Assembly: GCA_963716145.1 (NCBI GenBank)
Contig: OY970292.1
Coordinates: 268,104-332,103, forward strand
Reading direction: 5' to 3'
Source of the DNA: Candidatus Levyibacteriota bacterium
GTDB lineage: Bacteria; Patescibacteriota; Microgenomatia; Levybacterales; UBA12049
Length of the DNA: 64,000 nucleotides
The notes below the pieces were generated by a model. The model had not been told where the DNA came from. It searched no databases and saw only the letters and a list, made by a program, of their open reading frames with translations. The position numbers and the translations under genes were made by a program. Shown here in pieces: positions 28,659-55,792 of this stretch (positions are counted from its first letter, which is position 1; each line of letters begins with the position of its first letter).

Positions 28659-28703
28659 TTTAGATTAGTCAATACATTTTTGTAAGAATGTTATAATAAT
28701 TTT

Positions 28704-29467: not shown

Positions 29468-29495
29468 TTGTGTAATATAATATCAAAATATAACA
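29468..29495 (+). promoter_or_regulatory. sigma70-like promoter TTGACA-16-TATAAT
   Basis: TTGACA at 29468-29473, TATAAT at 29490-29495, 33 nt upstream of ORF 29528. Confidence 0.4.
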
Positions 29496-29527
29496 TTGTA
29501 ATAATCCAGTAATAATTAGGTAAAGTT

Positions 29528-30262: not shown

Positions 30263-30444
30263 TGTTTAAGCGCAGAGATGCTAAAGCAGCAGGTAGATTT
30301 CCTGGGTTAGAAGAAAAAGTTGAGACAATATTGCTGGAGAAAGAAAGAGGAGATGCTAAACCTGAGGCAGCAGTAGTTGTTAGATTTCCTGGGTTAGAAG
30401 AAAAAAGAAAACTGCTTGAACTACGAAGAGCAGGCTAATAATCT

Positions 30445-33527: not shown

Positions 33528-33541
33528 GCTATTTGCCGACT

Positions 33542-34297: not shown

Positions 34298-34475
34298 AAA
34301 CCAATTCGCTCATAATGAGCAGAAGGTTTAGTTAAGCGGTAATTATATACTATTTTGATCCATTTGTCAAGTAGTATAGTTGTGGAAGTTGAGGCTAATG
34401 AGGAGTTATCTTAATATCCTATAACATTTTAATCTTTTAATCACATTAATTTATAAGAAACCACTAATTATTGGG

Positions 34476-34548
34476 TGCTGAGGGTCAGAGTCGAACTGAC
34501 ATAGCCTGTTCTTCAGACAGGTGCCTTGACCACCTTGGCTACCTCAGC
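34476..34548 (-). tRNA. tRNA-Phe(GAA) (atypical D-arm)
   Basis: Acceptor GCTGAGG/CCTCAGC, anticodon stem CCTGT/ACAGG with loop CTGAAGA, T-arm GTCAG-TTCGACT-CTGAC. D-arm is a 3-bp stem with an 11-nt loop, unusual for Phe. Confidence 0.55.
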
Positions 34549-34576
34549 GCTATATGGTTGAGTCTTATTATACAAT

Positions 34577-35795: not shown

Positions 35796-35851
35796 GAAGG
35801 AATATTATACATCAGGGGAGTAACAAAGAAAACGCTAAGGCAAAATCAGTG

Positions 35852-35924
35852 TGGACGATGCAGGGATCGAACCCGCGACATCTTCAGTGTAAATGAAGCG
35901 CTCTACCAGCTGAGCTAATCGTCC
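35852..35924 (-). tRNA. tRNA-Val(TAC)
   Basis: GGACGAT-TA-GCTC-AGCTGGTA-GAGC-G-CTTCA-TTTACAC-TGAAG-ATGTC-GCGGG-TTCGATC-CCTGC-ATCGTCC-A. Clean 73-nt cloverleaf. Confidence 0.85.
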
Positions 35925-36006
35925 GCCTAAGCTTAATTATAGATGAATTTACCATTTCTATCAAGGTATCTTGTTTTATACTTTCAGCTATTTTAATGAG
36001 TGCGGT

Positions 36007-36561
36007 TTATTGTCTACGTTGTGCTTCTTTTAATTTGGCCAAAGCTTCACTTGTACTGACTGGCGGACGACGATTCAATGATGCAACAATTGGGTGGGTA
36101 GACTCCAGGGTAAATGTAAGTGATCCGTCACGCTCTGCACTTTCTTCAAAACCTACCATGTACCGCTCTCCTATGTATACTGCACCTAGTCCCGGGGTAA
36201 GATGTACAGGTATACTTCTAAATATTCCTTGTTTTCCTTGGAGCTCCCCAGCGGAAAGAGGCTTAGGGAGGACAGTTCCCGCTTGCGCTCTACTTTCCCA
36301 TACTACGGGAACAGTTAACTCCCGGGCAATATCTAAAAAGCCGCTAGCCCCTGGTCGATCATAAGCCAGAATTATATCTCCATCAATTATTACCACCTTA
36401 TCCGGAGGTAGATCAAAACTTTCTAGGTAAGGTCTTGGAATCTCAGCTAAGGGCTTGGACGCTGGGATTTCGCTCGCGAGGGAATCTACTTGATCTGGAT
36501 TATCATCTTCTGGTCGCGGCATAATACCCGCTATAATAACACAACTTTTCTCACAAATCAA
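36007..36561 (-). CDS. hypothetical protein (GC-rich compositional outlier)
   Basis: 184 aa with no recognised motifs. Lies between tRNA-Val and tRNA-Leu. Confidence 0.4.
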   Translation of the reverse strand: MICEKSCVIIAGIMPRPEDDNPDQVDSLASEIPASKPLAEIPRPYLESFDLPPDKVVIIDGDIILAYDRPGASGFLDIARELTVPVVWESRAQAGTVLPKPLSAGELQGKQGIFRSIPVHLTPGLGAVYIGERYMVGFEESAERDGSLTFTLESTHPIVASLNRRPPVSTSEALAKLKEAQRRQ

Positions 36562-36588
36562 CTATAGGATGCATCGTGTGAACATTTG

Positions 36589-36671
36589 TGCGGATGAGAG
36601 GAGTTGAACCTCCACGCCCTTGCGAGCACTACCACCTCAAGGTAGCGTGTATACCATTTCACCACATCCGC
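36589..36671 (-). tRNA. tRNA-Leu(GAG)
   Basis: Type II tRNA. Acceptor GCGGATG/CATCCGC, anticodon stem CTACC/GGTAG with loop TTGAGGT, long variable arm. Confidence 0.8.
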
Positions 36672-36711
36672 GTTTTGCGAAGCAAAACAACTTAAAACTC
36701 TGAACTTAGAA

Positions 36712-37111
36712 CTAAGAATGCGTTAGACTTTTGGAAAAGCCAATTAATTGCTTACCCACCTCTTCTGCCATAACTAATGCCTGATTCATTTCTTTCTGAT
36801 TAATACAACCATCATCCAATGCTAAATCAAGGCCTGCTATCACTTCTTCAAGCGATGTTAACGCCTGATTAAGAAAATGTGCTTTCTTTGTCTGTTGCCC
36901 TATTTGACCCTTCAGCAATATTTAAACACACTGACAATGCTGCTCGATTAATTTGATCAATTAGAACAAATCGTTCTGTCGCTGGTAACTTCTTTAATAA
37001 ATTCTTAACGAGCTTTCTAAATTCCTTTGACTTTTTATATACTGGAAAATCTCTAAATCTAAATAGCATATATTTTGCTGCGCAAAATAACTTTGAACAA
37101 AAAACATTCAA
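36712..37111 (-). CDS. four-helix-bundle protein (23S rRNA intervening-sequence protein family), frameshifted
   Basis: 36869..37111 has FPVYKKSKEFRKLVKNLLKKLPATERFVLIDQINRAALSVCLNIAEGSNR. 36712..36918 continues with FLNQALTSLEEVIAG... Removing one A at about 36893-36900 gives a continuous protein. Confidence 0.6.
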
Positions 37112-37185
37112 CTTAGAACTCCAAGGAATAATTGTTCTCTGTTCCTGGTTCTTAGCTCTGTGTAGTTCAGCTTCGCTGAACTATG

Positions 37186-37269
37186 TGCCGAAGAGGGGAC
37201 TTGAACCCCTACCTCTTTAACAAGACACGAACCTGAATCGTGCGCGTCTACCAATTCCGCCACTTCGGC
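37186..37269 (-). tRNA. tRNA-Leu(CAG)
   Basis: Acceptor GCCGAAG/CTTCGGC, anticodon stem CACGA/TCGTG with loop TTCAGGT, long variable arm. Confidence 0.8.
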
Positions 37270-37384
37270 GATTCGCTAATGCGAAACTAAAAACAATGGA
37301 CTTAAAACTTAGAATCATAAACTATCTAGTTCTTAGTTCCGCGTTCTTAGTTCATTGGTTGTATTTTGATTCTATCAAAAGACA

Positions 37385-37996
37385 GTGGACTTGACAATCT
37401 CAACAAATTTTGCAAATATAAATAGGCCCATGAGAAAGTTTTTTCTAACTGCTGCTTTCTTAGCCTCAACTCCTCTTATCTTAATTTTTGGACTTATTAT
37501 TATGCTTATTATTTATACTCAAAACACACATTCCGTGGCTTCTTCACCAACAGCTGTGTATGCAGCTCTTCCCACTACCCAGAATGTGCTTGCGGCTACT
37601 ATCATGGAAAGCGATGGGGGAAATGCCGAGAAAATTAGGCAATTTCTGGCCAGCTACAATTCACCCCTTGAGCCATATGCAGTTGACATAGTGGACGCTG
37701 CTGATGAGTATGGGCTCGATCACAGGCTAATCGTGGCTATTGCAATGCAAGAATCAGGCCTTTGCAAAACAATTCCTCAAGATTCATATAATTGCTGGGG
37801 ATTTGGAATTTACACAGGGCATGTGACAAGATTTGCGGATTACAAAGAAGGTATATACACCGTAACAAAAGCACTTGCTACAAAATATAAAAATAAAGGG
37901 TTGGTAACGCCAGAGCAAATTATGACCATGTACACTCCCAACAGCAATGGTAGTTGGGCTTTTAGCGTTAACCATTACATGGACAAGCTTCAATAA
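37385..37996 (+). CDS. membrane-anchored peptidoglycan hydrolase, SLT-like lytic transglycosylase motif (AIAMQESG)
   Basis: 203 aa. TM anchor. LIVAIAMQESGLC...YNCWGFGIY resembles the SLT consensus AIAxQES...GAxGLMQ. Paralogous to 38203..38757. Confidence 0.5.
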   Translation: MDLTISTNFANINRPMRKFFLTAAFLASTPLILIFGLIIMLIIYTQNTHSVASSPTAVYAALPTTQNVLAATIMESDGGNAEKIRQFLASYNSPLEPYAVDIVDAADEYGLDHRLIVAIAMQESGLCKTIPQDSYNCWGFGIYTGHVTRFADYKEGIYTVTKALATKYKNKGLVTPEQIMTMYTPNSNGSWAFSVNHYMDKLQ

Positions 37997-38202
37997 TTCT
38001 GCAAGGCAGAATTCTGTGCTATATATACTTCTCTTTGCCAGGAATTAAACCCAAATACTGTTATTTTAATCCTGCTTTACAACACTTGACAAACCTATAG
38101 TTATATGATATAATCCCCAACAGATCCTAAGGCATGTGCCCAAAACACATGCGTTAGGATTTTTCTTTGTCCGCCGAAGCTTTAGCGTAGGCGGATACTA
38201 AA

Positions 38203-38757
38203 ATGAAACTAAAACTGCTCAAAGTTTTTATTATTGTTTTCTTTGGATTCTTGCTGTCTGCTCATAAAGCATCAGCAAGCACTGCAGGAGCTTCCGCAAT
38301 GCTCGCCTCGATTGATATTTCATACCAAGAAACAGACAATCGGGCAGAAGTTTTACGAAGTTTCTTAGAGAAATACGATTCTCCTCTAGCGCTTTATTCC
38401 AGCAACTTCATTGAGGAGGCAGATAAAAATAATATTGACTGGAAGCTTGTTGCCGCTATTGCCGGGAATGAATCGTATTTTGGACAAATGATTCCTCCGT
38501 TTTCCTACAATGGATGGGGTTATGGTGTTTATGGAGATAATGTGCGCAGATTTTCTTCATGGGAAGAGGGTATCGCGGTAGTTTCAAGCGCAATCAGAAC
38601 GGATTATATTGATAAATGGGGAGCAACAAATGTCTATGAAATTGGATCCATCTATGCTGAGGACCCTATGTGGGCAAATAAAGTTACTAACTATATGAGC
38701 AAGATTGAAGATTTTAACAATCAAACATCCAACTCATCTCTTCCCATTTCACTCTAA
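38203..38757 (+). CDS. secreted peptidoglycan hydrolase, paralog of 37385..37996 (SLT-like)
   Basis: 184 aa. Signal peptide. LVAAIAGNESYFGQ...YNGWGYGVY. Same domain order as its paralog. Confidence 0.5.
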   Translation: MKLKLLKVFIIVFFGFLLSAHKASASTAGASAMLASIDISYQETDNRAEVLRSFLEKYDSPLALYSSNFIEEADKNNIDWKLVAAIAGNESYFGQMIPPFSYNGWGYGVYGDNVRRFSSWEEGIAVVSSAIRTDYIDKWGATNVYEIGSIYAEDPMWANKVTNYMSKIEDFNNQTSNSSLPISL

Positions 38758-38794
38758 ATAATTTATAATTGAAAATAACTAACTTGGGCGATGA

Positions 38795-38876
38795 GCGGAC
38801 GTGGTGAAATGGTAGACACGCAAGTTTTAGGAACTTGTGCTCAAAAGGCTTGGAGGTTCAAGTCCTCTCGTCCGCA
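38795..38876 (+). tRNA. tRNA-Leu(TAG)
   Basis: Acceptor GCGGACG/CGTCCGC, anticodon stem CAAGT/ACTTG with loop TTTAGGA, long variable arm, T-loop GTTCAAG. Confidence 0.8.
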
Positions 38877-41387: not shown

Positions 41388-41435
41388 ATGAAAAAAGTAA
41401 TTTACAGTTTGGTAGTACTCCTCATAGCCCCTTAA
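41388..41435 (+). CDS. putative branched-chain (Val/Leu/Ile)-rich leader peptide MKKVIYSLVVLLIAP
   Basis: 15 codons, 8 of them Val/Ile/Leu. Followed by nested hairpin TGGATT..CACCC-gccaacag-GGGTG..AATCCA + T6 (41455-41498). Confidence 0.5.
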   Translation: MKKVIYSLVVLLIAP

Positions 41436-41540
41436 CGGCGGGGGTACGACGTAGTGGATTGAATCACCCGCCAACAGGGTGGGAAGAATCCATTTTTTGC
41501 AAATTGACATTCCCTAGGCCGATTTGCTATCATTCAATTA

Positions 41541-41585
41541 ATGGTAGCGCAAAAATTTATTATTGAGATTATTATTGCTCCTTAG
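41541..41585 (+). CDS. putative Ile-rich leader peptide MVAQKFIIEIIIAP
   Basis: 14 codons, five ATT Ile codons in IIEIII. The stop TAG sits in the CTCC-ttag-GGAG hairpin. Promoter-like TTGACA-18-TATCAT at 41504-41533 upstream. Confidence 0.55.
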   Translation: MVAQKFIIEIIIAP

Positions 41586-41610
41586 GGAGGGTTTCTAGGC
41601 ACGCGCTTTG

Positions 41611-41634
41611 AACCTCCCCAACGGGAGTTTTTTT
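41611..41634 (+). terminator. attenuator terminator CCTCCC-caac-GGGAG + T7
   Basis: The 5' arm is complementary to GGGAGGG (41586-41592) immediately after the leader stop, giving an antiterminator alternative. Confidence 0.6.
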
Positions 41635-41747
41635 GTATACAAAAATTATTTATAAATAGTATACAATCCGCCAAGAGTGCTCCTTGAGCCGTGTTCGAAT
41701 AGAACTGAAAAGGCGAAAGGTAAACGACGGCGGATGTGAATTTAAAT

Positions 41748-43015
41748 ATGGACAAAGTAACAGTCAAAACAATAGACGAGGCGGAAAAAGTGCTTGAAAA
41801 TGTGATACGCAAAACGCCGCTTCAGTATAACAAACGGCTTTCCGATTTATATGGGCCAAAATATACTTTAAACGCGAAGATCTGCAAGATGTCCGCTCAT
41901 ACAAAATAAGAGGCGCGTACAACCTGATGAATAGCCTAACGGCAAAAGAAAAATCAAAAGGCGTTGTGACAGCCAGCGCGGGAAACCATGCGCAGGGAGT
42001 AGCGATGAGTGCATATATTCTCAAGATAAAAGCTACAATTTTTATGCCTGTAATCACACCTCTTCAAAAAATTAATAAAGTAAAACATTTTGGAAAAGAA
42101 TGGATAACAGTAAAACTTGTGGGGCAGGTGTATGATGATGCCTCTAATGCTGCGCATCAGTATTGCGAAGAAAACAAACAAACATATGTTCACCCTTTCA
42201 ATGATCCGCGCACCATATCAGGGCAAGGGACAGTCGGAAAAGAGATTTTGGAACAACTGGAAGAAAAAAGCCTGCCAACCAAAGGAAAAGTTGATTTTGT
42301 TTTTTGCCCGATTGGCGGAGGCGGACTCATATCAGGAGCTGGCACTTACATCAAAACAAAATTCCCAGATGCAAAAATCATTGGAGTTGAGCCAAAAGGT
42401 GCTCCCGCAATGCTTGAGGCCTTCAAACAGAAAAAAGTAGTGACCCTCAAAAAGATAGACACTTTTGTCGACGGTGCAGCAATAACGACTGTTGGAGAAT
42501 TGAGCTTCAAGATTGCCTCAAAAGTCACTGACAAAATCGTGGTGAGCGATGAAGGGAAAGTCTGTGTAACTATGGTTGATCTTTACCAAAACGAGGGAAT
42601 AATCGCAGAACCCGCCGGAGCATTATCGATTTCAGCACTGGACGAATTTGCTAAAGAAATTAAAGGAAAAACTATAGTTTGTGTCTTGAGTGGGGGAAAT
42701 AATGATATTCTGCGTTATCCTGAGATAATGGAAAAGAGTCTGGTTTATAAAGGCTTGAAGCACTATTTTCTGATTGAGTTCGCTCAAAAACCCGGACAAT
42801 TAAGACAATTCCTCAATCACGCCCTGGGTCCGAGAGATGATATAGTTTTATTTGAATACATAAAAAGAAACTCCAGAGAAAAAGGACCGGCACTTATCGG
42901 GGTTGAGCTGAGTAAAAAAGAAGATCTTTCTCTTCTTCTTGACAACATGGACAAATTGCAGATACGCTATACAAAGATCACAGCAGACGACCCTCTTTAC
43001 GGGTTTGTGCTCTAA
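41748..43015 (+). CDS. ilvA: threonine dehydratase (threonine ammonia-lyase) with C-terminal regulatory domain, split by a frameshift in this assembly
   Basis: PLP motif SYKIRGAY, ASAGNHAQGVA, GGGGL. The N-terminal 53 codons are in another frame. Adding one A to the A4 run at 41858-41861 gives ...LSDLYGPKIYFKREDLQDVRSYKIRGAY... Confidence 0.85.
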
Positions 43016-44592: not shown

Positions 44593-44666
44593 TGGATCTA
44601 AGTGGATTCGAACCGCTGACCTCTTCAATGTCAATGAAGCGCTCTAACCAACTGAGCTATAGATCC
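44593..44666 (-). tRNA. tRNA-Val(GAC)
   Basis: GGATCTA-TA-GCTC-AGTTGGTTA-GAGC-G-CTTCA-TTGACAT-TGAAG-AGGTC-AGCGG-TTCGAAT-CCACT-TAGATCC-A, with one C:A mismatch in the T-stem. Confidence 0.85.
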
Positions 44667-45136: not shown

Positions 45137-46355
45137 ATGGATAAAAATCAAATTAAAAGCCACCAGCAAATTAGCCAGGAGCAGGATCTGTATGTTATGT
45201 CTGAGCTTGTTGGCTCAGGCCTGCCACTATTGACACCCAAAGGGACTGTCCTTAGAAGAACTCTTCAAGCATACATAGATAATTTGTTGGAAAAACAGGG
45301 ATACCAATTTGTAACGATTCCGCACATCGCGCGAAAAACACTTTACGAAAAATCCGGACATTTAGAAAAATTTTCCGAGGATATGTTTCCGGTTATGAAG
45401 ACAAAGGACCGCGAATATATGCTCAAACCGGCAAACTGCCCCCATCATATAGAAATTTTCGCCAGAAAACCACATTCTTACCGCGAGATGCCTCAGCGTT
45501 ACGCTGAAAGCACCACGCAATACCGATCCGAGCAGTCAGGAGAACTTGAGGGGCTCGCAAGAGTCCTGGCTTTAACACTTGATGATTCCCATGTTTTTGC
45601 CACACTTGATCAAATAAAAGATGAATTTAGAAGAGCGTTGAATATCAATAAGCAAATGCTTGAGGATTTTAAATTGAATTACTGGATTAGACTATCAGCA
45701 TGGGATCCAAAAAAGAAGACAAGGTACCTGGGTGATGAGAAGGTATGGGAGGAGATGCAGAATTTAATGGAACAGATTCTCAAGGATTCTAAAATTAATT
45801 ATAAAAAGGTTGAGGGCGAAGCCGCTTTTTACGACCAAAATGGATCTTATTACAACAGACTCAAACGGAAAAGAATGGCAGGTGTCAACAATTCAGGTGG
45901 ACTTCAATTTACCTGAAAGATTTAACATATCGTATATTGACGCAGACGGAAAAGAAAAAAGGCCTATCATGCTTCACAGGGCAACTTTTGGATCATATGA
46001 GCGTTTCCTGGCAATGATTATTGAACATTTTCAAGGTGCATTTCCCACTTGGCTTGCGCCTGTTCAGATGACGCTTCTACCAATTGCCGATAGACATATT
46101 GAATTTGCTGAGCAAGTGAATAAACAACTACTAGATGCGGGGTTCCGCTCAGAGGTTGATACGCGCTCTGAACGGCTTCAGGCCAAAATCCGAGATGCTG
46201 CTTTACAAAAAGTACCATTTATGGGTATAATAGGGGATAAAGAAATTGATACCAAAGAGGTATCTGTTAGAATGCGCGGGGGAGAAGACTTAGGTTCCCT
46301 TACAAACGAATCCCTAATTAATAAGTTACAAGAAAACATTGATAAGAAAATATAA
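45137..46355 (+). CDS. thrS: threonyl-tRNA synthetase (catalytic core + anticodon-binding domain; no N-terminal TGS/editing domains), split by a frameshift in this assembly
   Basis: Class II motifs (YMLKPANCPHH, FRRALN). The second ORF continues ...QVDFNLPERF...HRATFGSYERF...PTWLAPVQ. Frames join at the T5 run 45826-45830. Confidence 0.85.
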
Positions 46356-46905
46356 GCCAACTCAAAAGAAAATATATAGACTTAATCAGCGTATTTTCGC
46401 GTCGCCCTTGAGAGTACTGGACGCGGAAGGAAAATTGATTGGGGTACTAACAAAGTTTGAAGCACTGAAGCTTGCCCAGGAGCAGGAATTGGATTTGGTC
46501 GAAATTGCGCCAAAGGCACAGCCCCCGGTTGCAAAAATAGTAGATTTTAACAAATTTCTTTACCAACAGGAAAAAAAGAAAAAAGAGGAAAAGAAAAAAG
46601 CAAAAGTGAGTGAGACCAAGGAGCTAAGACTTGGTCCTTTTATGTCTGAGCATGATTTGCAAGTGGTAATTAGAAGAGGACGCGAATTCCTGGAAGAAGG
46701 ACACAAATTAAGATTGGTCTTAAAATTCAGAGGAAGACAAATCGTTCATCCTGAATTTGGACACAAGACAATTGGAAAACTGGTTGAATCATTAAAAGAT
46801 ATATCAAAAATAGATAGGGAGGCACATTTTGAAGGAAAACAATTAGTAGCACTTCTCTCAGCTGAGAAGGGAAAGAAAAAAGATGAAAACAAAACAGAAA
46901 GTTAG
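46339..46905 (+). CDS. infC: translation initiation factor IF-3
   Basis: 188 aa. INQRI...VRVID N-domain and C-domain. Lys-rich linker. Canonical position after thrS. Confidence 0.9.
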   Translation: MIRKYKPTQKKIYRLNQRIFASPLRVLDAEGKLIGVLTKFEALKLAQEQELDLVEIAPKAQPPVAKIVDFNKFLYQQEKKKKEEKKKAKVSETKELRLGPFMSEHDLQVVIRRGREFLEEGHKLRLVLKFRGRQIVHPEFGHKTIGKLVESLKDISKIDREAHFEGKQLVALLSAEKGKKKDENKTES

Positions 46906-47083
46906 AGGATCTGTCAGTAAAAGATTTAAAGTGACCAAAACAGGCAAAGTAAAATTTGCCCATCAATTTGGCAGCCACAAAAAGCTGCATAAGTCCAAGT
47001 CCAGAATTAGGCGTCAAAAAGAACCGGGAACGCTAACAGGCGCATTTGCAAAGAAGGTAAAACAGATGTTGGCAGTAGCCTAG
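46883..47083 (+). CDS. rpmI: 50S ribosomal protein L35
   Basis: 66 aa, basic. [10 protein letters not shown] motif. Confidence 0.9.
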
Positions 47084-47093
47084 AAAGGAAATT

Positions 47094-47444
47094 ATGGCAA
47101 GAATTAAAAGAGGAGTTGTATCAAAAAGAAAACATAATAAATTACTGGATCTGACCAAAGGCTTCAGGGGTACAAAAAGCACCCTGATCCGGGAAGCAAA
47201 AGCAGCCAGTCTTCACGCGGGTCAATACGCGTACAATGGGCGCAAGGAGAGAAAAAGCGACTTCCGCTCCCTTTGGATCATAAGGATAGGCGAGGCTGTC
47301 AAACAATACGGGCTTTCTTACAGTGTTTTTATCAATAAATTGAAAAAAGCCAATATTGAACTTGATAGAAAAATTTTAAGCAGCTTGGTGGTTGAGGATC
47401 CGGAAGCATTCAAACACGTCGTTAACTTAGCCAAAAAAATATAA
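47094..47444 (+). CDS. rplT: 50S ribosomal protein L20
   Basis: 116 aa. [17 protein letters not shown]-terminus. Confidence 0.95.
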
Positions 47445-47445
47445 T

Positions 47446-47541
47446 ATGATTAACTCAGTGAAAAACTTACAATTAAATTGGTATTACTTTTACTTTACTT
47501 CTCGCAAAAGCGGGAGGTTGAGTTATGGTTTAAATAACTAA
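47446..47541 (+). CDS. putative aromatic (Trp/Tyr/Phe)-rich leader peptide MINSVKNLQLNWYYFYFTSRKSGRLSYGLNN
   Basis: 31 codons. TGG TAT TAC TTT TAC TTT run at 47479-47496. Begins 2 nt after the rplT stop. Confidence 0.5.
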   Translation: MINSVKNLQLNWYYFYFTSRKSGRLSYGLNN

Positions 47542-47588
47542 AAAGAAATAAACCAAAACCCAATACCTCCCAAACGGGAGGTTTTTTT
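47501..47588 (+). promoter_or_regulatory. attenuator: hairpin CTCGC-aaaa-GCGGG, antiterminator GGGAGGT/ACCTCCC, terminator ACCTCCC-aaac-GGGAGGT + T7
   Basis: GGGAGG occurs at 47512-17 and 47576-82, and CCTCCC at 47566-71. Terminator U-run at 47582-47588. Confidence 0.55.
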
Positions 47589-47604
47589 ATGGGAAAAATA
47601 AAAT

Positions 47605-47976
47605 ATGAGAACACAAGAACTACAGCGCGACAGAATAGAAATATGGGAAAGAAGAAAATCTGCAAAACCCAGTGGCAAGGATGTTGTTACGGCTATGATA
47701 TTCCCGCTGCCATGGGGCGCTGGTGTTCATCAGTTTGAATCCCCTGCCGGGACAATAACCGTTGATATGAGCTTTGGAAGAATAAATCCGGCAAATGAAA
47801 CTCAACAAGTCGTCGTAAAAGGACCTCGGAGTGGCGGGACGATTGTAATGGATCTTATAAATGGAAAGGGAAGAGCAATGCCTAGCCCTGGTGTTGAAGT
47901 GGTTTTTGACGCGTCCCGGCTTACAAGCGCGTTGGATGCGGACAATATGCGCTCAAAATCTAGGCGAGGCTGGTAG
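47605..47976 (+). CDS. hypothetical 123-aa protein under aromatic-leader control
   Basis: No family recognised (…TITVDMSFGRINPANETQQVVVKGPRSGGTIVMDLINGKGR…). Moderately GC-rich. Confidence 0.45.
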   Translation: MRTQELQRDRIEIWERRKSAKPSGKDVVTAMIFPLPWGAGVHQFESPAGTITVDMSFGRINPANETQQVVVKGPRSGGTIVMDLINGKGRAMPSPGVEVVFDASRLTSALDADNMRSKSRRGW

Positions 47977-47991
47977 TCAAATATATTTTTG

Positions 47992-48020
47992 TTGACTAGC
48001 ATAAAAAAGTCTGATATACT
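47992..48020 (+). promoter_or_regulatory. sigma70 promoter TTGACT-17-TATACT
   Basis: TTGACT at 47992-47997 and TATACT at 48015-48020. The leader ATG is 8 nt downstream. Confidence 0.6.
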
Positions 48021-48027
48021 ATATCCA

Positions 48028-48084
48028 GATGAAGAATCTTATTAAAACAAACGCATTTTACTTTACCTTCGCTAAGCGGGGGTA
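48028..48084 (+). CDS. putative Phe/Tyr-rich leader peptide MKNLIKTNAFYFTFAKRG
   Basis: 18 codons. TTT TAC TTT ACC TTC at 48055-48069. The stop TAG (48082-84) lies inside segment 2 of the attenuator. Confidence 0.6.
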
Positions 48085-48133
48085 GGTTTTTGCGTAAAAA
48101 CAAAAATGCACCTCCGGAAACGGAGGTTTTTTT
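48058..48133 (+). promoter_or_regulatory. Phe attenuator (1:2 TACCTTCG/CGGGGGTA; 2:3 CGGGGGT/ACCTCCG; 3:4 terminator ACCTCCG-gaaa-CGGAGGT + T7)
   Basis: Mutually exclusive pairings verified by hand. U-run at 48127-48133 immediately before ATGGAAAAAATATG. Confidence 0.6.
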
Positions 48134-48144
48134 ATGGAAAAAAT

Positions 48145-49422
48145 ATGGTAAGAATAGATACATTGAGAGGAAAAGACAACCTAAGAGATCCGGAAGTACA
48201 ACCAGTGTCAACAATTGCGTACCTTAGTCCAAATGGGAATTTCACGCACGTTGCTGCTTTGGAACTACAGCGGAAACAAAGCGCATATGAAGGAGCGCTG
48301 CTCATGGGCATACCATCAATAGATGGTATGTTTGAAGCGGTTGTGTCGGGCGGAGCATCATATGCACTAGTTCCAGTTGAAAATTCAACAGATGGAGCTG
48401 TGCCTAAAACGCATAAAAATTTATATGAACGGGAGGGATTACAAATCGTTGGAGAATTCGTATTGCCAATATCGCAAACCCTTTATTATCAAAATATCGA
48501 TATGGTTAGAATTGTAGCATCCAAAGATTCGGCTCTTGGGCAGTGCAGGAAAAACATCAAACGCTTGAACGATGAAATAAATAAAAAAAGAGTAAAAGAA
48601 GGAAAAGAAAAAATTATTCTACGGCTAGAAACCATGGAAAGCACGGGCGCTGCAGTTGCTGAAGCCGCGATAAAACCCTGGATTGCAGCATTGGGAAGTT
48701 CCATTTCCGCTGAGGCACAAAAAATTACAAATCTTCATAAAGAAGATGATTTTAACGATAGGGAATCTAACGCAACTACATTTGCGCTGGTTCAGCTTGC
48801 GAGAGAGCTGCCTCCTCCGACTGGAAATGACAAAACCACATTTACAATGACAATTCCTGACACGCAAGGATCGCTTGTGCATGCTCTTGATGTCCTTGCG
48901 AGAAACAACGTTGATCTGAACAAAATCAAATCAATCGGTAAGGAGAGTGGGACTGTTACATTCTTAATGTCTGCCGACGGCCATTTACAAGATGGTATCA
49001 TGCAGGAAGCACTTATCGCATTGGAAACAGATCCTGAAAGAGACATTAAGGTAAAAAGACTAGGTTCATATGCCAAAGATGATTATACTCCGGAGGAGAG
49101 TGAAGAAACATATGATTTTGAGGCAGCCATTGAAAGAATTGATAAAGAAGCAGGGAATGGTGAAGCAATGGATGAAAATAAAATGATTGCAATCTTCACG
49201 CTAAAAGACCACCCCGGAGCACTAAGAGATGCTTTAAGACCATTTGCTAACGCAGGGGTGAATCTTACGAAAATTGACTCACAGCCAAGCGGCATACATA
49301 ATGAGCACATCTTTTATGTAGCTTTTGATAAAACTACTAAAAACCAAGAAGCTCTATTGGATGAATTAAAGAGACAATCTCATTTTCATAAGGTAATTCC
49401 CGGCGGGGGAAAGAAAAAATAA
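48145..49422 (+). CDS. pheA: prephenate dehydratase with tandem ACT-like regulatory region
   Basis: PDT domain (TIAYLSPNGNFTHVAALE, ESTGAA, NATTFALV) and ACT (PGALRDALRPFANAGVNLTKIDSQPS). Start set at 48145, because the ORF-track start 48106 would translate the terminator hairpin. Confidence 0.8.
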   Translation: MVRIDTLRGKDNLRDPEVQPVSTIAYLSPNGNFTHVAALELQRKQSAYEGALLMGIPSIDGMFEAVVSGGASYALVPVENSTDGAVPKTHKNLYEREGLQIVGEFVLPISQTLYYQNIDMVRIVASKDSALGQCRKNIKRLNDEINKKRVKEGKEKIILRLETMESTGAAVAEAAIKPWIAALGSSISAEAQKITNLHKEDDFNDRESNATTFALVQLARELPPPTGNDKTTFTMTIPDTQGSLVHALDVLARNNVDLNKIKSIGKESGTVTFLMSADGHLQDGIMQEALIALETDPERDIKVKRLGSYAKDDYTPEESEETYDFEAAIERIDKEAGNGEAMDENKMIAIFTLKDHPGALRDALRPFANAGVNLTKIDSQPSGIHNEHIFYVAFDKTTKNQEALLDELKRQSHFHKVIPGGGKKK

Positions 49423-49442
49423 ATATATGCTACAATTTAATT

Positions 49443-50471
49443 ATGGAACATGAATTACTGACAATTAAAAATAACGCGCTTTCTCTCATCTTTGACGCGA
49501 AAGAGAAAAAAGAGCTTGAGGAAATAAAACTGCAATTTCTCGGACGATCTGGAGAACTTACACGAGTTCTTAAAGGGCTTCCCAAATTATCAGAAGATGA
49601 AAAACCAACTATCGGCAAAGTGGCCAATGAGGTAAAAACGATTATTGAAAACGCTATCAAGCAGAAAGAATCGGAACTTGGCAAGAAAAAAGACACAAAC
49701 TTTATACTTGATGTCACGGAACCTGGTATTAAACCGCCTCTGGGACATCTGCATTTAGTTACACAGGCTATCCGTGAAATAACACGGATTTTTGAGAGCA
49801 TAGGATTTACCAGAGTCAGTTATCCTGAAATTGAATGGGATTGGTACGCGTTTGAAGCGCTAAATTTCCCAAAGCACCATCCGGCAAGAGATGATTGGGA
49901 GACATTTTTCATCGACCAAAAACCAGATAGCAAAAAAGGGCCTGTTGTTCTAACTCCTCACACTTCATCCGGTCAAATCCGGGAATATGAAAAAGGTGAG
50001 CTTCCTATTAAGTGCTTAAATATTGCCAAATGCTATCGGAGGCAATCTGATGTCTCACATACTCCGGTGTTTCATCAATTTGAAACAATGGTTGTCGGAG
50101 AAAATATATCAATAGCAGATCTTAAGGGGGTTCTTGATTATTTTGTAAAGTCATACTTTGGACCTGATAGAAAATCAAGAATACGACCATATCATTTTCA
50201 ATTTACTGAGCCCTCATTTGAAACAGATATTTCTTGTGGCGTATGTAATGGAAAAGGCTGCAAGCTTTGCAAGGAGGGCTGGCTTGAGTTGGGAGGAGCA
50301 GGTATGGTTCATCCGAATGTATTAAAAAACACGGGTCTTGATCCGAAAAAATATTCAGGGTTTGCATCGGGCTGGGGCGTGGAGCGCGTTCTCATGATGA
50401 AAGACGGAATTCAAATAGATGATTTAAGGACGCTCTACGCAAATGATCTGGATTTTCTGCAACAATTTTAA
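49443..50471 (+). CDS. pheS: phenylalanyl-tRNA synthetase alpha subunit
   Basis: 342 aa. Class II motifs. FETMVVGE, GLDPKKYSGFASGWGVERVLM. Confidence 0.95.
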   Translation: MEHELLTIKNNALSLIFDAKEKKELEEIKLQFLGRSGELTRVLKGLPKLSEDEKPTIGKVANEVKTIIENAIKQKESELGKKKDTNFILDVTEPGIKPPLGHLHLVTQAIREITRIFESIGFTRVSYPEIEWDWYAFEALNFPKHHPARDDWETFFIDQKPDSKKGPVVLTPHTSSGQIREYEKGELPIKCLNIAKCYRRQSDVSHTPVFHQFETMVVGENISIADLKGVLDYFVKSYFGPDRKSRIRPYHFQFTEPSFETDISCGVCNGKGCKLCKEGWLELGGAGMVHPNVLKNTGLDPKKYSGFASGWGVERVLMMKDGIQIDDLRTLYANDLDFLQQF

Positions 50472-50473
50472 TT

Positions 50474-52425
50474 ATGAATATACAAATTCTGGACAGTTGG
50501 TTAAGAGAAAATTTAAAGACAAAAGCGTCTCCTAAACAAATTGCGGAGAAACTTTCTTTATCAAGTGTTTCTGTTGAGAAACTTGAGAAAAAGGGCGAGG
50601 ACTACCTTTACGATATTGAAGTAACCACCAATCGACCGGATCTTATGTCTGTTGTGGGTTTGGCACGCGAAGCAGCAACTGTCCTATCTCACAATGGCAT
50701 AGCTGCAGAATTCCAAAAACTTACCTTCCCAACTGTAACCACAAAACTAATTAAAGAAGAATTCACTATCGAAAATGATCCAAAACTTGTAAATAGAGTT
50801 TGTGCTGTCGTGATAGAAGTAACAGCAAAACCATCTCCCAAAAAAATAAAAGAAAGGCTTGAAGCAAGTAACATACGAAGTCTTAATAATATTATTGACG
50901 TTACAAATTATGTCATGCGGGCAATCGGTAATCCTATGCACGCGTTTGATTATGACTTGCTTGCGACCAAAAAATTTGTTATCCGCGAGTCCAGACCAGG
51001 CGAGAAATATACAACTCTTGATAATAAAGAATATATACTTCCTGGAGGCGATATTGTTGCAGATTACGGCACAGGAAAGATTGCCGATCTTCTGGGCGTA
51101 ATGGGTCCTAAGCAAAGCGCAGTTAGCGATGCAACGAAAAGAATTTTATTCTTTGTTGACAACAATGAACCGCATCGTATCCGCAAAACCTCAATGTCAC
51201 TTGGTCTTCGGACAGAGGCAGCTATTCTTAATGAAAAAGGAATTGATCCTGAACTCTCTATGGATGCGCTTTTGTATGGAGTAAAACTTTATGAGGAATT
51301 TGCTGATGGAAAAGTGATTTCTGAAATCATTGACATATATCCAAATAAAGTAAAACGCAACGAGATAATAGTGAATGAGGATAAAATAAACTCCGTAATT
51401 GGTATCGCAGTTCCGCTTAAGACTTCATCATCGATTTTGAAGAGTCTTGGATTTGAAGTTGAAATTAAAGATAGATCCCTTTTAGTTAAACCGCCATCTT
51501 TCAGAACCCGTGACGTAGAAATCACGGAAGATGTAATTGAGGAAATTGCAAGAATCTATGGATATGAAAACATTCCCAACCGGATACCTGAACTTACCAA
51601 TCAAAAACCATTTAATTTTTCAAAAAATCAATTCTTTTTTGAAGATAGAACAAAAGACGCCCTTAAGTATTGGGGCTTTACTGAAAGCTATACCTACCCG
51701 ATGGTTTCAGAAGATCTATATGAGGGCCACCAGACTCTTCAGTAAAAATAAAAAATCCCTTGAATGAAGAATTTGTCTATATGAGGATGAGTCTCGTGCC
51801 AAGCCTGTTAAAGGTAGTAAAGGATAATAAAACTCACCCGATTATAAAAATCTTTGAAATTGCAAATGTTTATGAAAAAAACGGCGATGGTCTGCCAAAG
51901 CAAATTCAAAAAATTGCGGGAATCGTTAAAAAACCAGGAGCATCTTTTTATGAGGTAAAAGGAGTAATTGAGCAGCTTTTTTTGGATCTTGGAATAAAAA
52001 ATGCGATCTTTAAACAAACGATGGCCGGTACCGGGGCAACAATTTCTATAGGTAAAGAAGAATTGGGAGATATTGAAGTCTTAGCCCGGGACACAATTGA
52101 TTTTGAGCTGAATTTTGAACAAATCCTCAAACACGCAACTGTCAAAAAAGTATATAAAACAATCAGCAAGTTCCCGCAATTCGTTGAAGATCTGGCAATT
52201 ATCGCGCCGGAGAAAATTCAAACAGGAGAGATAATTGAAACAATCAAAGCTCAAAATGAGCTTGTCATCGACGTATCGCTTCTGGATAAATATGAGGAGA
52301 CAAGAACGTTTCATATTGCTTATCAGAGTGATAGTAGAAATCTTACGGGAAAAGAGGTGGGAGAAATTAGAGAAAAGATTCTAAAAGCTCTAAAAGAAAA
52401 ACATAACGCACTGCTTAAAGAATAA
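50474..52425 (+). CDS. pheT: phenylalanyl-tRNA synthetase beta subunit (short form without N-terminal tRNA-binding domain), split by a frameshift in this assembly
   Basis: B3/B4 (TNRPDLMSVVGLAREAA), B5, and core (NPLNEEFVYMRMSLVPSLL) domains. Making the G3 run at 51724-51726 a G4 run joins ...EDLYEGPPDSSVKIKNPLNEE... Confidence 0.85.
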
Positions 52426-52427
52426 GT

Positions 52428-53150
52428 ATGAAAACTACACAAATTTATCTAGACGATTCTTATCAAACAGAAATGGACGCAAAGATATTAGAAATCCAAC
52501 CGGAAGCTGACGGTAAATGGAGAATAATACTTGACCAAACGGTTTTTTACCCTATGGGTGGAGGGCAGCCTACAGATCAAGGGAAATTATCTTCTGATTC
52601 ATGGAGTGGGGATGTGTATCAAGTGATGATGAAGGATGGGGAGATCTGGCACTACGTAAATGCACAAAATTCTCCGACAGCCGGAGACACCGTACATGGA
52701 ACAATTGACTGGGATAGAAGATACAAAAACATGAGAGTGCATACAGGGGGACATATAGTGGATTTTGCGATGTATCTTCTCGGATATTCACCAAAGCAGC
52801 TTTCACCTCTAAAAGCAGATCACGGAAAAAAAGCTTATATCGTTTATCAAGGGACTGTGCGGGATGAAATAAAACAAAAGCTCGAAGAAAAAGCAAATGA
52901 GTTGGTAGAAAAAGATTTAAAGTTTTCTTGGGATTTCCAACCTTTGGAAGCTTTGCAAAAAGAAGCGATTTATCTTCAACCAAATCTGCCGACAAATAAA
53001 CCTCTCCGAACATTCCGGCTTGAAGGAGTAGGCGCGGTGGCAGATGGGGGAACTCAACTTCACTCGACAAAAGAAGCAGGAAAAATCCTGATTGACGAAA
53101 TAACATCTGACGAAGAGAATACAATAGTGAAATATTCACTCGGTAATTGA
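52428..53150 (+). CDS. AlaX-type alanyl-tRNA editing protein (Ala-tRNA synthetase second additional domain)
   Basis: 240 aa. FYPMGGGQPTDQG, HTGGHIV (HxxxH) and DGGTQLH (CGGTH-like) zinc motifs. Confidence 0.75.
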   Translation: MKTTQIYLDDSYQTEMDAKILEIQPEADGKWRIILDQTVFYPMGGGQPTDQGKLSSDSWSGDVYQVMMKDGEIWHYVNAQNSPTAGDTVHGTIDWDRRYKNMRVHTGGHIVDFAMYLLGYSPKQLSPLKADHGKKAYIVYQGTVRDEIKQKLEEKANELVEKDLKFSWDFQPLEALQKEAIYLQPNLPTNKPLRTFRLEGVGAVADGGTQLHSTKEAGKILIDEITSDEENTIVKYSLGN

Positions 53151-53154
53151 AAAT

Positions 53155-53424
53155 ATGTCAGAAATTGCAGAGTTAAGAAACGAAATTAAAAAATTAAAAG
53201 AGCGAAATAAAAAAGTGGAAACAAATAAAGCTTGGGAATTAAGTTGGACACGAAGATTAATATTAGCTATTCTTACTTATGTAATAGCAGCCATTACTTT
53301 GCAGACATTAAGCAACTCGTCTCCCTGGACGAACGCCGTAATTCCGGCAATCGGCTTTTTCCTATCAACTCTTACTCTTACCCTTGTCAAAAACTTCTGG
53401 AAAACATATATATACGGCAGATAA
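53155..53424 (+). CDS. small membrane protein
   Basis: 89 aa. Coiled N-terminus plus two TM helices. Confidence 0.4.
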   Translation: MSEIAELRNEIKKLKERNKKVETNKAWELSWTRRLILAILTYVIAAITLQTLSNSSPWTNAVIPAIGFFLSTLTLTLVKNFWKTYIYGR

Positions 53425-55792
53425 TTAAGGAGTTGGCGACAGCGTTGGTGTGATTGCGGCTCCGCTGACTGCTGGAACAGGTGTTGGAGTAGGTTCGTCT
53501 TTTTTGTCCTCATGCTTTGGATTTTTTACATCATCCGGCGCATGATACATCTTGTCATCTTTATGGTTTTGCTCAATCCATGCATCAATTCCTTCCTGCC
53601 ATCTATTTTTGCCGTCAGTCGAAACAGGATCATCTTCGTGAAATATCAGATAGTTTTGCCCATCTTTGCTTTTATAGATAGGCGATTCGCTTGTGGGCTC
53701 TGTCCCTTTGACAAAATATTCTGACCTTGTTGGCTGCCCTCCGTGAGGCAAACCTCCGGCCAAAGTATCAATCTGAAGCGCTACCACGCTATCAGGCTTT
53801 TGCGGCTGCTCATCCGCTTTATCCTTAAGTACAAAAGTCATTATCTTATTCCAGATAGGCGAAGCTCCCGTTACACCACTGGCAATAACAGGATTCATTG
53901 GCGCATTGTTATTGTTGCCGACCCATACCCCAACCACATATGATGGAGTATATCCTACCGTCCAGTTATCTCTTTTGTCATCAGTCGTACCTGTTTTGAC
54001 AGATACGGTTTTACCGGGGATATTGAGAGCGGAGCTTGGTCCAAACGCCGCGGATCTTGCATTATTATCCAAAAGCATATGAGAAATTACGAATGCTACT
54101 CCCTCCGACAGTACTTTTTTTCCTTCCGTTTTTTTCTTCTCGTATAACACCTTTCCTTTTGGATCTGTCACTTTAAGTATTGTGACCGATTCTTGCTTCA
54201 CCCCTTTATTTGCAAAAACACTGTAAGCCGTAACTTCATCAAGCAAAGATGCTTCACGTCCTCCCAAAACCAGAGACAATCCAACGCTCGCGCGGTTTTT
54301 TGCTGTGGCTCCCAATTTTGAATCCCCATTTCATAAGCTTTTCGCATCACAGGCTCTATGCCCACCATTGCGAGCATTTTCACAGCGGGGATGTTAAATG
54401 AGTTACCTAAAGCAAACCTGGCCTGCACCGGCCCCTAAATTTTCCATCGTAGTTTGGTGGTGTATAAATAGGGGGTACACCGCTCACTGGAAAATCAGTT
54501 TTGGTATCCATTATCAAGGTAGCAGCTGTATATCCCTTTTCCAAGGCCACAGCGTATATAACAGGCTTCATTGATGATCCTGGTTGTCTGGTATTTTTGA
54601 TTGCGACATTTGGGTCAGGATCAAATACGCAGTCTGCTCCGGAGGTACAACCCTCAGGCGCCGACTTGCCAAAATAATCCTTACTTCCAACCATTGCCAG
54701 AATTTCACCACTTTTAGGATCAGCAACTACTGCTGCTCCATTACCCACCTTGTATGTTTTCAATTTATCTACCTCATCCTGCACGATTTGTTCGGCTTTT
54801 TCTTGAATTTTGTAATCAAGAGAAGTTGTGACCTGAAGACCTCCTGTAGCAACAGCCTGTTCACCAAACTGTTTTGCCAAAATTTCCCTTACATACATTA
54901 CAAAATGGGGAGCTTTGATTGCTTCATCGCGTTCCGAAAATTTATAATTTTTTATCTCATTGAATGCATCGTTTGATTCACTTTGCGAGATATAATTATT
55001 TGCAACCATTTGGCGAAGAACTGCCTGTGTGCGCTCAATATAATATTTTTGACCACTAAAAGGCGCGTAACGCGACGGGCTTTGGGGAAGACCGGCCAGA
55101 AAAGCAGATTCGGCAAGATCCATATCTTTTGATTTTTTTCCAAAATATTGCTGAGAGGCAGCTTCAACTCCTATTGCGGTTCCGCCATAAGGAATGTTAT
55201 TCAAATACATTTCCAATATTTCGTCTTTTTTATACTTTTGATTAACTTGGATGGCCAAAATCAGTTCTTTAATTTTTCTTGGCAAACTCCGCTCGTTGGA
55301 AAGAAGCACGTTCTTTACTAATTGCTGAGTAATTGTCGATCCTCCGGTCAATCCATGACCAAGGAGTGCATCTCTCGCAACTCTAACATAGGCGAGAGGG
55401 GAAAAACCATTATTTTTGTAAAAATCCTTATCCTCAATTGAAATAGTCGCTTCCTGAAGCTTTTTGGGGATTTGATCCAACTTTACATAAGTTCTGTTCT
55501 CATCCTGATAAACTGAGTAAAGAAGATCTCCTTTTCTATCGTAAATCCGTGTTGCGTCTTTGTATTTTGAAGTCACCAGTTTTCCAGGTGTAGGCAGATC
55601 ACGAGAGAACCATAAGAACATTAAGGGGATAGCTACAATTACCCCAATTAATGCATACAATGCGTATTTGAATATCTTGTCATTGGTCAATATTCCGGAA
55701 AGGTCGAATTTAGTCTTTTGCCTATTTAGTCTGCTGCGCCGCCGCCTGGGTCTGTAATCCATAGAACTATCTATATTATAGCAAAAATTCAA
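53425..55792 (-). CDS. class A penicillin-binding protein (GT51 transglycosylase + transpeptidase), split into three ORFs by two frameshifts in this assembly
   Basis: 54407..55792 has GT51 EDKDFYKNNGFSP and the SxxK active-site motif SSMKP. 54198..54428 has ALGNSFNIPAVKML. 53425..54315 has KTGTT and a PT-rich tail. Junctions at about 54407-54428 and about 54198-54315. Confidence 0.85.

Follow-up and report, generated by a model that had tools for sequence, protein, structure and literature searches.

Here, we analyzed a 64,000-nucleotide (nt) stretch of contig OY970292.1 (positions 268,104 to 332,103 of the forward strand; hereafter the window), in which two short open reading frames (ORFs) with runs of aromatic codons lie between rplT and pheS. 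The gene order is thrS, infC, rpmI, rplT, a 31-codon ORF, an ORF of 123 amino acids (aa) (here named ORF123), an 18-codon ORF, a 425-aa gene with prephenate dehydratase (PDT) and ACT domains, pheS and pheT. An initial annotation had interpreted the two short ORFs and the hairpins following them as two paralogous aromatic leader-peptide attenuators, a proposal that was borne out by comparative and folding tests. We consider it very probable that both units are paralogous, functional transcription attenuators of the classical ribosome-mediated (leader-peptide) type. The features of the locus are given below, with the pairing regions of each unit numbered 1 to 4.

47094-47444, + strand: rplT (ribosomal protein L20; Pfam Ribosomal_L20, E = 5.7e-40), whose 3' end holds the promoter-like site of unit 1
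47422-47450, + strand: promoter-like site P1, TTAACT-17-TATGAT, within and just past the rplT 3' end, 7 nt 5' of GTG 47458
47446-47541, + strand: leader ORF 1, MINSVKNLQLNWYYFYFTSRKSGRLSYGLNN, 31 codons from ATG 47446 or 27 from GTG 47458
47497-47518, + strand: unit 1 hairpin 1:2, ACTTCTCGC-aaaa-GCGGGAGGT, with region 2 at 47510-47518; seen in the minimum free energy fold and in ribosome-mask folding
47565-47588, + strand: unit 1 terminator 3:4, ACCTCCC-aaac-GGGAGGT (47565-47582) followed by T7
47605-47976, + strand: ORF123, encoding a small cytosolic protein of 123 aa from an eight-member family
47992-48020, + strand: promoter P2, TTGACT-17-(TGa)TATACT, 8 nt ahead of the ATG of leader 2
48029-48085, + strand: leader ORF 2, MKNLIKTNAFYFTFAKRG, 18 codons, with the TAG stop at 48083-48085
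48064-48084, + strand: unit 2 hairpin 1:2, TACCTTCGC-taa-GCGGGGGTA, with region 2 (GCGGGGGTA) at 48076-48084, which holds the leader stop
48110-48133, + strand: unit 2 terminator 3:4, ACCTCCG-gaaa-CGGAGGT (48110-48127) followed by T7; region 3 alternatively pairs with region 2
48134-48151, + strand: mini-ORF ATG GAA AAA ATA TGG TAA, which begins 7 nt past the GGAGG of arm 4 and whose stop lies 4 nt inside the PDT gene
48145-49422, + strand: PDT-like gene, 425 aa (Pfam PDT, 9.6e-29; ACT, 3.1e-14)
49428-49436, + strand: extended -10-like element TGcTACAAT, 6 nt ahead of the pheS ATG, with neither a -35 element nor a Shine-Dalgarno (SD) sequence
49443-50471, + strand: pheS (Pfam tRNA-synt_2d, 2e-77)

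Both short ORFs, all hairpins, both U7 terminators and the promoter are present where the initial annotation had placed them. Leader ORF 2 indeed has its stop inside region 2, but starts at 48029 and not at 48030. Its promoter P2, which had been called perfect, is strong and carries a TG extension but matches the consensus at 10 of 12 positions. The surroundings of P2 (GTTGACTAGCATAAAAAAGTCTGATATACT) resemble the rplT 3' end of the single-leader relative L004 (GTTGACCTTGCAAAAAAAGTTTGATATACT), with 23 of 30 bases identical as counted by eye, and P2 and leader 2 may have originated by duplication or recombination of a module comprising an rplT 3' end, a promoter and a leader. An independent Logan assembly of run ERR11593400 is identical to the window over 46364-53457, except for one base in pheT. 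Both leader sequences are therefore reliable and not an assembly artefact.

In leader ORF 1, the ATG at 47446 abuts the rplT stop, and the run Trp-Tyr-Tyr-Phe-Tyr-Phe (WYYFYF) occupies positions 47479-47496. Initiation at P1 would put the 5' end of the unit 1 transcript near GTG 47458 (MKNLQLNWYYFYF..., compare MKNL... of unit 2), while the ATG start could serve transcripts arriving from rplT. At the position of P1, relatives have TTGACx-17-TAxxxT, 6 to 8 nt ahead of the leader ATG. The regulatory codons of leader ORF 2, Phe-Tyr-Phe-Thr-Phe, lie at 48056-48070. Region 3 of unit 1 (47565-47571) is likewise able to pair with region 2 instead of region 4, forming an antiterminator. Both terminators have 7-bp stems with five GC pairs each. 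The units fold far better than dinucleotide-shuffled controls, with z = -4.82 for unit 1 and z = -4.83 for unit 2, and 0 of 200 shuffles as good in either case.

We also determined how often such elements arise by chance. Aromatic-rich 6-codon windows are not rare, with about 22 sites in the six frames of the window (39% GC), among which WYYFYF is the sole run of six aromatic residues in six codons. Terminator-like sites are in little excess in the region, at 12 versus 7.9 ± 2.7 in shuffles. Both counts would fit an arrangement of ordinary operon-end terminators after rplT and ORF123, with aromatic short ORFs occurring by chance in T-rich DNA. Since aromatic windows alone are common, the significance of the units lies in the conjunction of the aromatic run with promoter, stop and terminator, and in the conservation of this conjunction in relatives.

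Leader units in related loci

DNA of relatives was collected from NCBI, JGI, ENA and Logan. Loci L002-L008 and L088-L092 were obtained by exact-protein look-up, with L008 coming from the GTDB representative set, and L093-L099 are JGI metagenomes found with a clade-specific C-terminal profile of the PDT gene. Ordinary PheA genes dominated a contig scan with the full PDT alignment, which gained L008 as the only close relative. In total, 21 homologous units were found in 16 related loci, so that aromatic codon runs and hairpins do recur at this position in related genomes, as the initial annotation required. Four traits are shared by all of these units: an in-frame run of Phe or of Trp/Tyr/Phe codons, a stop within or just past the 1:2 hairpin, the 2:3 antiterminator and the 3:4 terminator with its T-run.

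Every relative with readable upstream DNA carries, directly 5' of the PDT gene, a promoter followed by a short Phe-run ORF and a terminator (L002, L004, L006, L007, L008, L088, L091, L093, L094, L095, L096 and L098, plus L092, which is cut at its 5' end and in which region 2 and the terminator are still visible). Protein identity in this set falls from 85% to about 35%. At the position of leader 2, xFFFTF(A)-stop or FFFTS-stop is present in twelve relatives:

Phe leader of L002: MKNLVKVNAFFFTS
Phe leader of L004: MQKTLNNGSFFFTFA
Phe leader of L006: MGVINVNNQVNFFFTFA
Phe leader of L007: MKKQILVNTFFFTS
Phe leader of L008: MKNLTKINAFFFAFA
Phe leader of L088: MNKQIVNSAFFFTFA
Phe leader of L091: MIKGLNFGFYFTYPTGR
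Phe leader of L093: MKQYKNVTIFSFFFTFA
Phe leader of L094: MENRQELAFGFFFTFA
Phe leader of L095: MKQYNNLTIFRFFFTFA
Phe leader of L096: MRQCSNSKTFRFFFTFV
Phe leader of L098: MQKLQRGAFRFFFAFA

The N-terminal halves of these peptides drift, while frame, length (14 to 17 codons), FFFTF run and placement of the stop within the 1:2 loop are preserved, as expected of a regulatory leader and not of a functional peptide. The gene downstream of Phe-only leaders is the PDT gene without exception, and overall the leader type correlates perfectly with the downstream gene. This pattern bears directly on a chance origin: frame, start, stop position, aromatic run and complementarity of regions 2 and 3 are kept in over 20 units, even where the neighboring protein has dropped to about 35% identity and with the rest of the peptide drifting, and the leader type follows the gene it precedes. 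As no relative with intact genes lacked the ORFs, we regard the combination of ordinary terminators and fortuitous ORFs as effectively refuted, with a negligible probability.

The common state in relatives is a single Phe leader or a single Trp/Tyr/Phe leader, and the window is a composite of both. The earlier description as an insertion thus covers half of the picture. In L007, the space between rplT and the Phe leader is taken up by an unrelated 114-aa ORF without a family match (2227-2571). No separate leader precedes this ORF, whose 3' end imitates that of rplT together with the promoter (…SVDLAQKA-stop). L008 (DATLDE010000011.1) is labelled Candidatus Limnocylindrales (Chloroflexota), yet resembles the window in its low GC, in having DUF5665 and in the entire architecture of the locus. 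Either its label or bin may be wrong, or the lineage may not belong to the Candidate Phyla Radiation (CPR). The description of the window genome as CPR-like is plausible: the contig size of 1,142,061 bp, the GC content of 39%, the DUF5660 and DUF5665 domains and the predominance of housekeeping genes speak for it, and the Chloroflexota label of L008 speaks against it.

Folding of 17 units with RNAalifold recovered the 1:2 hairpin and the 3:4 terminator. In the terminated state, 98.9% of cells were paired across 12 Phe units (98.8% for the terminator stem columns), compared with 38 to 56% in slid controls, and double changes were found at four pairs, a result reached by 0 of 500 shuffles. Compensatory stem changes, which the initial annotation had proposed to look for, are thus present in the terminated state; for the 2:3 pairing, covariation is not significant. 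In L007, regions 2, 3 and 4 are altered together (CTCGGGGGT / AACCCCGA / TCGGGGTT). The 2:3 antiterminator was 94% paired versus 43 to 63% in slid controls.

To simulate a translating ribosome, 20 units were folded with all bases kept unpaired from the 5' end through 10 nt past the A-site codon. Free RNA, or RNA whose ribosome sits at the stop codon, folds into the terminator. Moving the A site to the last two or three aromatic codons makes regions 2 and 3 pair and leaves arm 4 single-stranded. The switch was seen in nearly all of the 20 units and failed in the second leader of L088 (L088_L2). In the window, the effective stall codons are Tyr16/Phe17 in unit 1 and Tyr11/Phe12 in unit 2.

We also considered whether the switch is read by a factor other than the ribosome, such as a T-box-like tRNA, a ligand riboswitch or a protein (L20, or a TRAP-like one). 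The site adjoins rplT, and L20 is a known RNA-binding autoregulator. Furthermore, pheST is under T-box control in Firmicutes (PMC1262725). On the other side, the units are just about 105 to 145 nt long, their conserved part consists of in-frame codons and not of an aptamer-like fold, and Ile and Leu versions (see below) change the codon run only. Searches of Rfam for a T-box, L20_leader or riboswitch gave no match for the window units even at E <= 10. Taken together, a reader other than the ribosome is highly unlikely, and the in-frame codons point to ribosome-mediated control.

Genes downstream of the leaders

The gene behind unit 2 had been called pheA. It does encode PDT and ACT domains, but the product is a distinct PDT-ACT-ACT protein that scores 187 bits against the NCBIfam model for prephenate dehydratase (PRK11898), for which the cut-off is 219. 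The PDT domain is followed by a divergent first ACT domain and a second, canonical-looking C-terminal ACT domain. The latter carries the motifs GALRDAL...NLTKIDSQP, resembles Phe-binding ACT domains and matches the regulatory domain of phenylalanine hydroxylase. The clade contains 14 full-length relatives (37 to 100% identity), all with PDT, ACT and second ACT domains, and is set apart by a gap from ordinary PheA/P-proteins, which align over 68% of the length with about 34% identity. At the catalytic TRF motif, the window protein and its close relatives have TTF, and clade members further away have TRF. Prephenate dehydratase activity of the protein is plausible. Two clade members, the window protein included, have a 13-residue lysine-rich insertion in the PDT domain.

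ORF123, the gene behind unit 1, matched only itself in a word-indexed protein database. An exhaustive HMMER search of representatives together with a profile search extended the family to its eight members. The giant repeat proteins P0127, P0128 and P0130 were rejected as homologs, as they look like compositional or immunoglobulin-like-repeat noise. Neither a signal peptide nor a family match was found for ORF123. An AlphaFold2 model based on the eight-sequence alignment (predicted local distance difference test score, 79.9; predicted template modeling score, 0.70) shows eight beta strands and a C-terminal helix, and fold searches with this model returned nothing significant.

All five other family members with readable context sit between rplT and pheS, alongside the PDT gene in L002 and L008 and without it in L100, L101 and L102. 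In 6/6 loci, ORF123 is preceded by a leader that combines Trp with Phe/Tyr codons, and each of these leaders is followed by ACCTCCC-N3-4-GGGAGGT and T7. The codon runs are as follows:

Window: NWYYFYF
L002: FWNYYYF
L008: SWNFYYF
L100: NWFYFYF
L101: SWSFYYF
L102: NWFYFYF

A covariance model (R1) trained on 12 Phe units only detects all seven Trp/Phe/Tyr units (30 to 52 bits) as well as the unit of L091. On window unit 1, it aligned to 47461-47591 with 52.4 bits (E = 3.7e-6). Because the Phe-only model detects the mixed units, we consider the two window units paralogous.

In L088, a Trp/Phe/Tyr leader (MNKFAAKWFYFYYTS) heads a divergent DAHP-synthase-like gene and not ORF123. DAHP synthase is the entry enzyme for all three aromatic amino acids. 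The rule suggested by these leaders is that Phe-only leaders would control the enzyme of the Phe-specific branch, and mixed leaders a gene expected to serve all aromatic amino acids, or ORF123. The L088 gene (2922-3842) is a weak match to NF006421 (33.5 bits). A second DAHP-synthase-like gene, between the PDT gene and pheS of L092 (1303-2061), scores 137 bits, below the cut-off of 335. Their presence suggests that this clade has the shikimate entry step at least in part. No other aromatic-pathway genes were found among the 36 window ORFs scanned with Pfam.

The sole functional clues to ORF123 are its invariant position and its Trp/Tyr/Phe leader. In this way, the leaders serve as a sequence-only annotation that would place the ORF123 family and the PDT-ACT-ACT enzyme in an aromatic-starvation regulon, and the same leader type would add the DAHP-synthase-like gene of L088.

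Proposed mechanism and its reach

The analysis established the elements and their conservation, the competing pairings and, in silico, a thermodynamic switch, and the units share a common layout. A sigma-70-type promoter lies 6 to 11 nt 5' of a 14- to 31-codon ORF ending in aromatic codons. Region 1 comprises the end of the aromatic run and the next two or three codons, and region 2 (GCGGRGGT) is at or just past the stop. Region 3 (ACCTCCS) can pair with region 2 or form the 7-bp terminator with region 4 (SGGAGGT), followed by U7. With ample charged tRNA, a ribosome at the stop would cover region 2 or let 1:2 re-form, so that 3:4 forms and transcription stops. With scarce charged tRNA-Phe (unit 2) or tRNA-Phe/Tyr/Trp (unit 1), the ribosome would stall on the last aromatic codons and mask region 1. 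The 2:3 pairing would then form, and RNA polymerase would read into ORF123 (unit 1) or into the PDT gene and on towards pheST (unit 2). The starvation response itself is what we infer from these elements.

Several observations weigh against this interpretation or limit its reach. The covariation is thin: the stems are almost invariant (GGAGG/CCTCC), and most double changes come from L007 alone. For the 2:3 pairing, covariation was no better than in the column-shuffle control, its columns being nearly invariant. The footprint used for masking is a modeling choice. For some units (L093-L095), a nested structure of 1:4 and 2:3 competes at equilibrium, so the argument for a switch leans on the co-transcriptional (kinetic) order of folding. 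The stop of leader ORF 1 lies about 20 nt beyond region 2, unlike in most relatives. Finally, the targets of the attenuators may be chiefly ORF123 and the PDT gene. It is uncertain whether unit 2 also governs pheST, because pheS appears to have its own extended -10 promoter: TGnTACAAT followed by 6 to 7 nt and the pheS ATG is conserved in L004, L088, L100 and L102. Such a separate promoter may give a leaderless pheS mRNA, with pheST transcribed independently of the attenuators.

The promoters of the units follow the pattern TTGACx-17-TAxAxT, most often extended by TGn. Where a locus has a single leader, this promoter is embedded in the 3' end of rplT, and the TGA stop of rplT supplies the TG. 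The -10 hexamer ends 6 to 11 nt ahead of the leader start codon in practically every unit. Because of this short distance, the leader ORFs are probably translated from leaderless or nearly leaderless RNA. All four stem segments appear to be built from GGAGG/CCTCC-type sequences.

This composition may also have consequences for translation of the regulated genes, which lack an SD sequence of their own (…AAAAATATG). Immediately 3' of the T-run, at a distance of 7 nt from the GGAGG of arm 4, stands an ATG, GTG, ATT or ATA codon. The stop of the resulting mini-ORF overlaps the start of the regulated gene (ATGA or ATGGTAA) in 14/21 units, and the mini-ORF is in frame with the regulated gene in 5/21. 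Window unit 1 is an exception, as its post-terminator frame continues for 49 codons. The arrangement suggests that the 3' arm of the terminator (arm 4) is the SD site of a mini-ORF translationally coupled to the regulated gene. The antiterminated fold would leave arm 4 accessible, whereas a terminator hairpin arising on a readthrough transcript would sequester it. This would add a second control layer, with efficient translation limited to antiterminated transcripts. If this is true, transcriptional and translational gating would be combined within about 110 nt.

The same features might be read as mainly translational control, in which the leader switch exposes or hides the GGAGG arm as a ribosome-binding site and the T-run adds little termination. 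Region 4 as a perfect SD 7 nt ahead of ATG, GTG or ATT, the overlap of the mini-ORF with the main start and the lack of an SD in the main genes would all be expected in that case. Against it, a run of six to eight T residues directly follows a GC-rich 6- to 7-bp stem in every unit, which is the signature of a canonical intrinsic terminator, and a T-run is needless for SD sequestration alone. The two layers are compatible, so translational gating would be an addition to transcription attenuation and not its replacement. We consider mainly translational control unlikely.

Units of the same appearance were observed elsewhere. In the window, two more leader-like units (41389-41640) lie upstream of ilvA-like threonine dehydratase and RidA genes. 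The first of these (unit A; MKKVIYSLVVLLIAP-stop, 41389-41436) is followed by G/C hairpins and a T-run. The second (unit B) has the promoter TTGACA-18-TATCAT, the leader MVAQKFIIEIIIAP-stop (41541-41585), whose stop is in the loop of a GCTCCT/GGGAGG hairpin, and the terminator CCTCCCcaacGGGAG with T7 (41613-41634). In the masking simulation, a stall at Ile10/Ile11 of unit B led to the antiterminator, and the unit looks like an Ile attenuator of the same design as the Phe units. The roughly 110 nt between this attenuator and the ilvA start (41640-41750; ATG at about 41749) contain no ORF and no Rfam match. In L096, R1 detected a Leu-type leader MNCRNLSNKLVLLLTR and an Ile-type leader MNLQTISIINIIITSSEGGVFA (1476-1587 and 1870-1991), and in L098 a Phe/Tyr leader MKKVNFANTSFYYFNYTFQKGGSL 3' of the PDT gene (2436-2569). 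Each of these extra L096 and L098 leaders has a promoter and a CCTCCC/GGGAGG terminator. Because the same design occurs with Ile or Leu runs upstream of ilvA and in L096, the lineage seems to use the mechanism generally. As threonine dehydratase and RidA are encoded in the window, its genome is not devoid of amino-acid metabolism.

A more far-reaching proposal, which we put forward tentatively and hold to be less probable than the attenuators themselves by a wide measure, concerns the lineage as a whole. A small-genome lineage, possibly belonging to the CPR/Patescibacteria, might run its residual amino-acid metabolism on ultra-compact Phe, Trp/Tyr/Phe, Ile and Leu attenuators with a leaderless ORF, stems composed entirely of SD and anti-SD sequences, and a terminator arm that doubles as the ribosome-binding site of a mini-ORF. 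The ORF123 family (a beta-sandwich) might then be an aromatic-starvation component linked to pheST. Attenuators in such tiny uncultured genomes would mean that tRNA charging is monitored and that the biosynthesis of at least Phe and Ile is regulated. This runs counter to the usual picture of small-genome organisms as auxotrophs with few regulators. The compact design, with a terminator arm serving as SD and a coupled mini-ORF, would also be usable as a small synthetic-biology part if confirmed.

The remaining gene content of the window is mostly housekeeping, with DUF5660 and DUF5665 proteins among the products. Apparent single-base frameshifts split several essential genes. One of them, pheT, is interrupted at 51723, but an additional A in the independent Logan contig L104 keeps its 650-aa gene intact, so that the interruption is either an assembly indel in the window or variation between strains. 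The other frameshifts split thrS (45137-46355) at 45810-45916, ilvA at about 41850 and PBP1 on the minus strand (53425-55792). These may be errors of the same kind as in pheT, or real pseudogenes. A tRNA gene (44593-44666, minus strand, 67.8 bits) lies between an M20 peptidase gene and the DUF5665/thrS genes, and seven more are located within 26041-38876.

Comparison with known attenuators

The closest counterpart by position is the pheM leader of Escherichia coli, and the analogy drawn in the initial annotation is apt. pheM likewise lies between rplT and pheS, at the same chromosomal position of the same cluster, thrS-infC-rpmI-rplT-[leader]-pheS-pheT. Its peptide is close to ...TIFRFFFTFA (L095), ...TFRFFFTFV (L096) and ...NWFYFYFTS (L100), with IFRFFF as a shared motif. 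Its stems are also GGAGGC/GCCTCC-based, its terminator is AGCCTCCCagtGGAGGCT followed by T7, and its regulatory logic is the same as that proposed for the window units. The two systems differ in several respects. Here, the regulated gene starts 12 to 17 nt past the unit, whereas in E. coli pheS begins about 280 nt downstream of pheM. The first regulated gene is the PDT gene or ORF123 here and pheS in E. coli, and the leaders described here look leaderless, unlike pheM. At the nucleotide level, R1 found no match at E <= 10 in the E. coli rplT-pheS region. The near-identity in position and peptide may reflect ancient conservation, transfer or convergence.

Unit 2 is also similar to pheL-pheA of E. 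coli, in which a Phe-rich leader ending in ...FFFTFP-stop precedes a prephenate dehydratase gene. As here, its 1:2 hairpin contains the last Phe codon together with the stop, and a terminator of the CCUCCC/GGGAGG type follows. In contrast to the E. coli P-protein, the downstream protein here has no chorismate mutase domain and carries an extra ACT domain. A search against the Rfam Phe_leader family (RF01859), which the initial annotation had suggested, gave weak matches for unit 1 (47462-47591, 36.3 bits, E = 0.0025) and unit 2 (48040-48133, 28 bits, E = 0.16), both aligning end to end with the model (positions 1-125). No match anywhere in the window reached the gathering score of 55 bits. Because both units score below this threshold, they are best described as analogs, and not demonstrated members, of pheL/Phe_leader.

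In the papers covered by our search, leader-peptide attenuators are documented for Proteobacteria and for Actinobacteria, with predictions extending to a few Firmicutes (PMC2965389, PMC1262725). The classical attenuators predicted in Actinobacteria and Firmicutes comprise trp, ilvB, leuS and hisS leaders (PMC1262725, PMC2965389). Like the window units, they are of the leader-peptide type outside the Proteobacteria, and some stand before aminoacyl-tRNA synthetase genes; they differ in phyla, sequences and amino acids. In the literature searched, we found none linking leader peptides or attenuation to the CPR/Patescibacteria.

A further parallel concerns the leaderless start. Mycobacteria possess leaderless cysteine-rich upstream ORF (uORF) attenuators, in which a short ORF senses the supply of one amino acid. 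These cysteine uORFs resemble the window leaders as leaderless regulatory short ORFs, but act without an obvious intrinsic terminator, whereas the window units have canonical terminators. Cys leaders lacking terminators have been noted before (PMC1262725). Set against these systems, the mechanism of the two window units is textbook, and what is new is the lineage, the uncharacterized family of one of the regulated genes and, possibly, features of the compact design.

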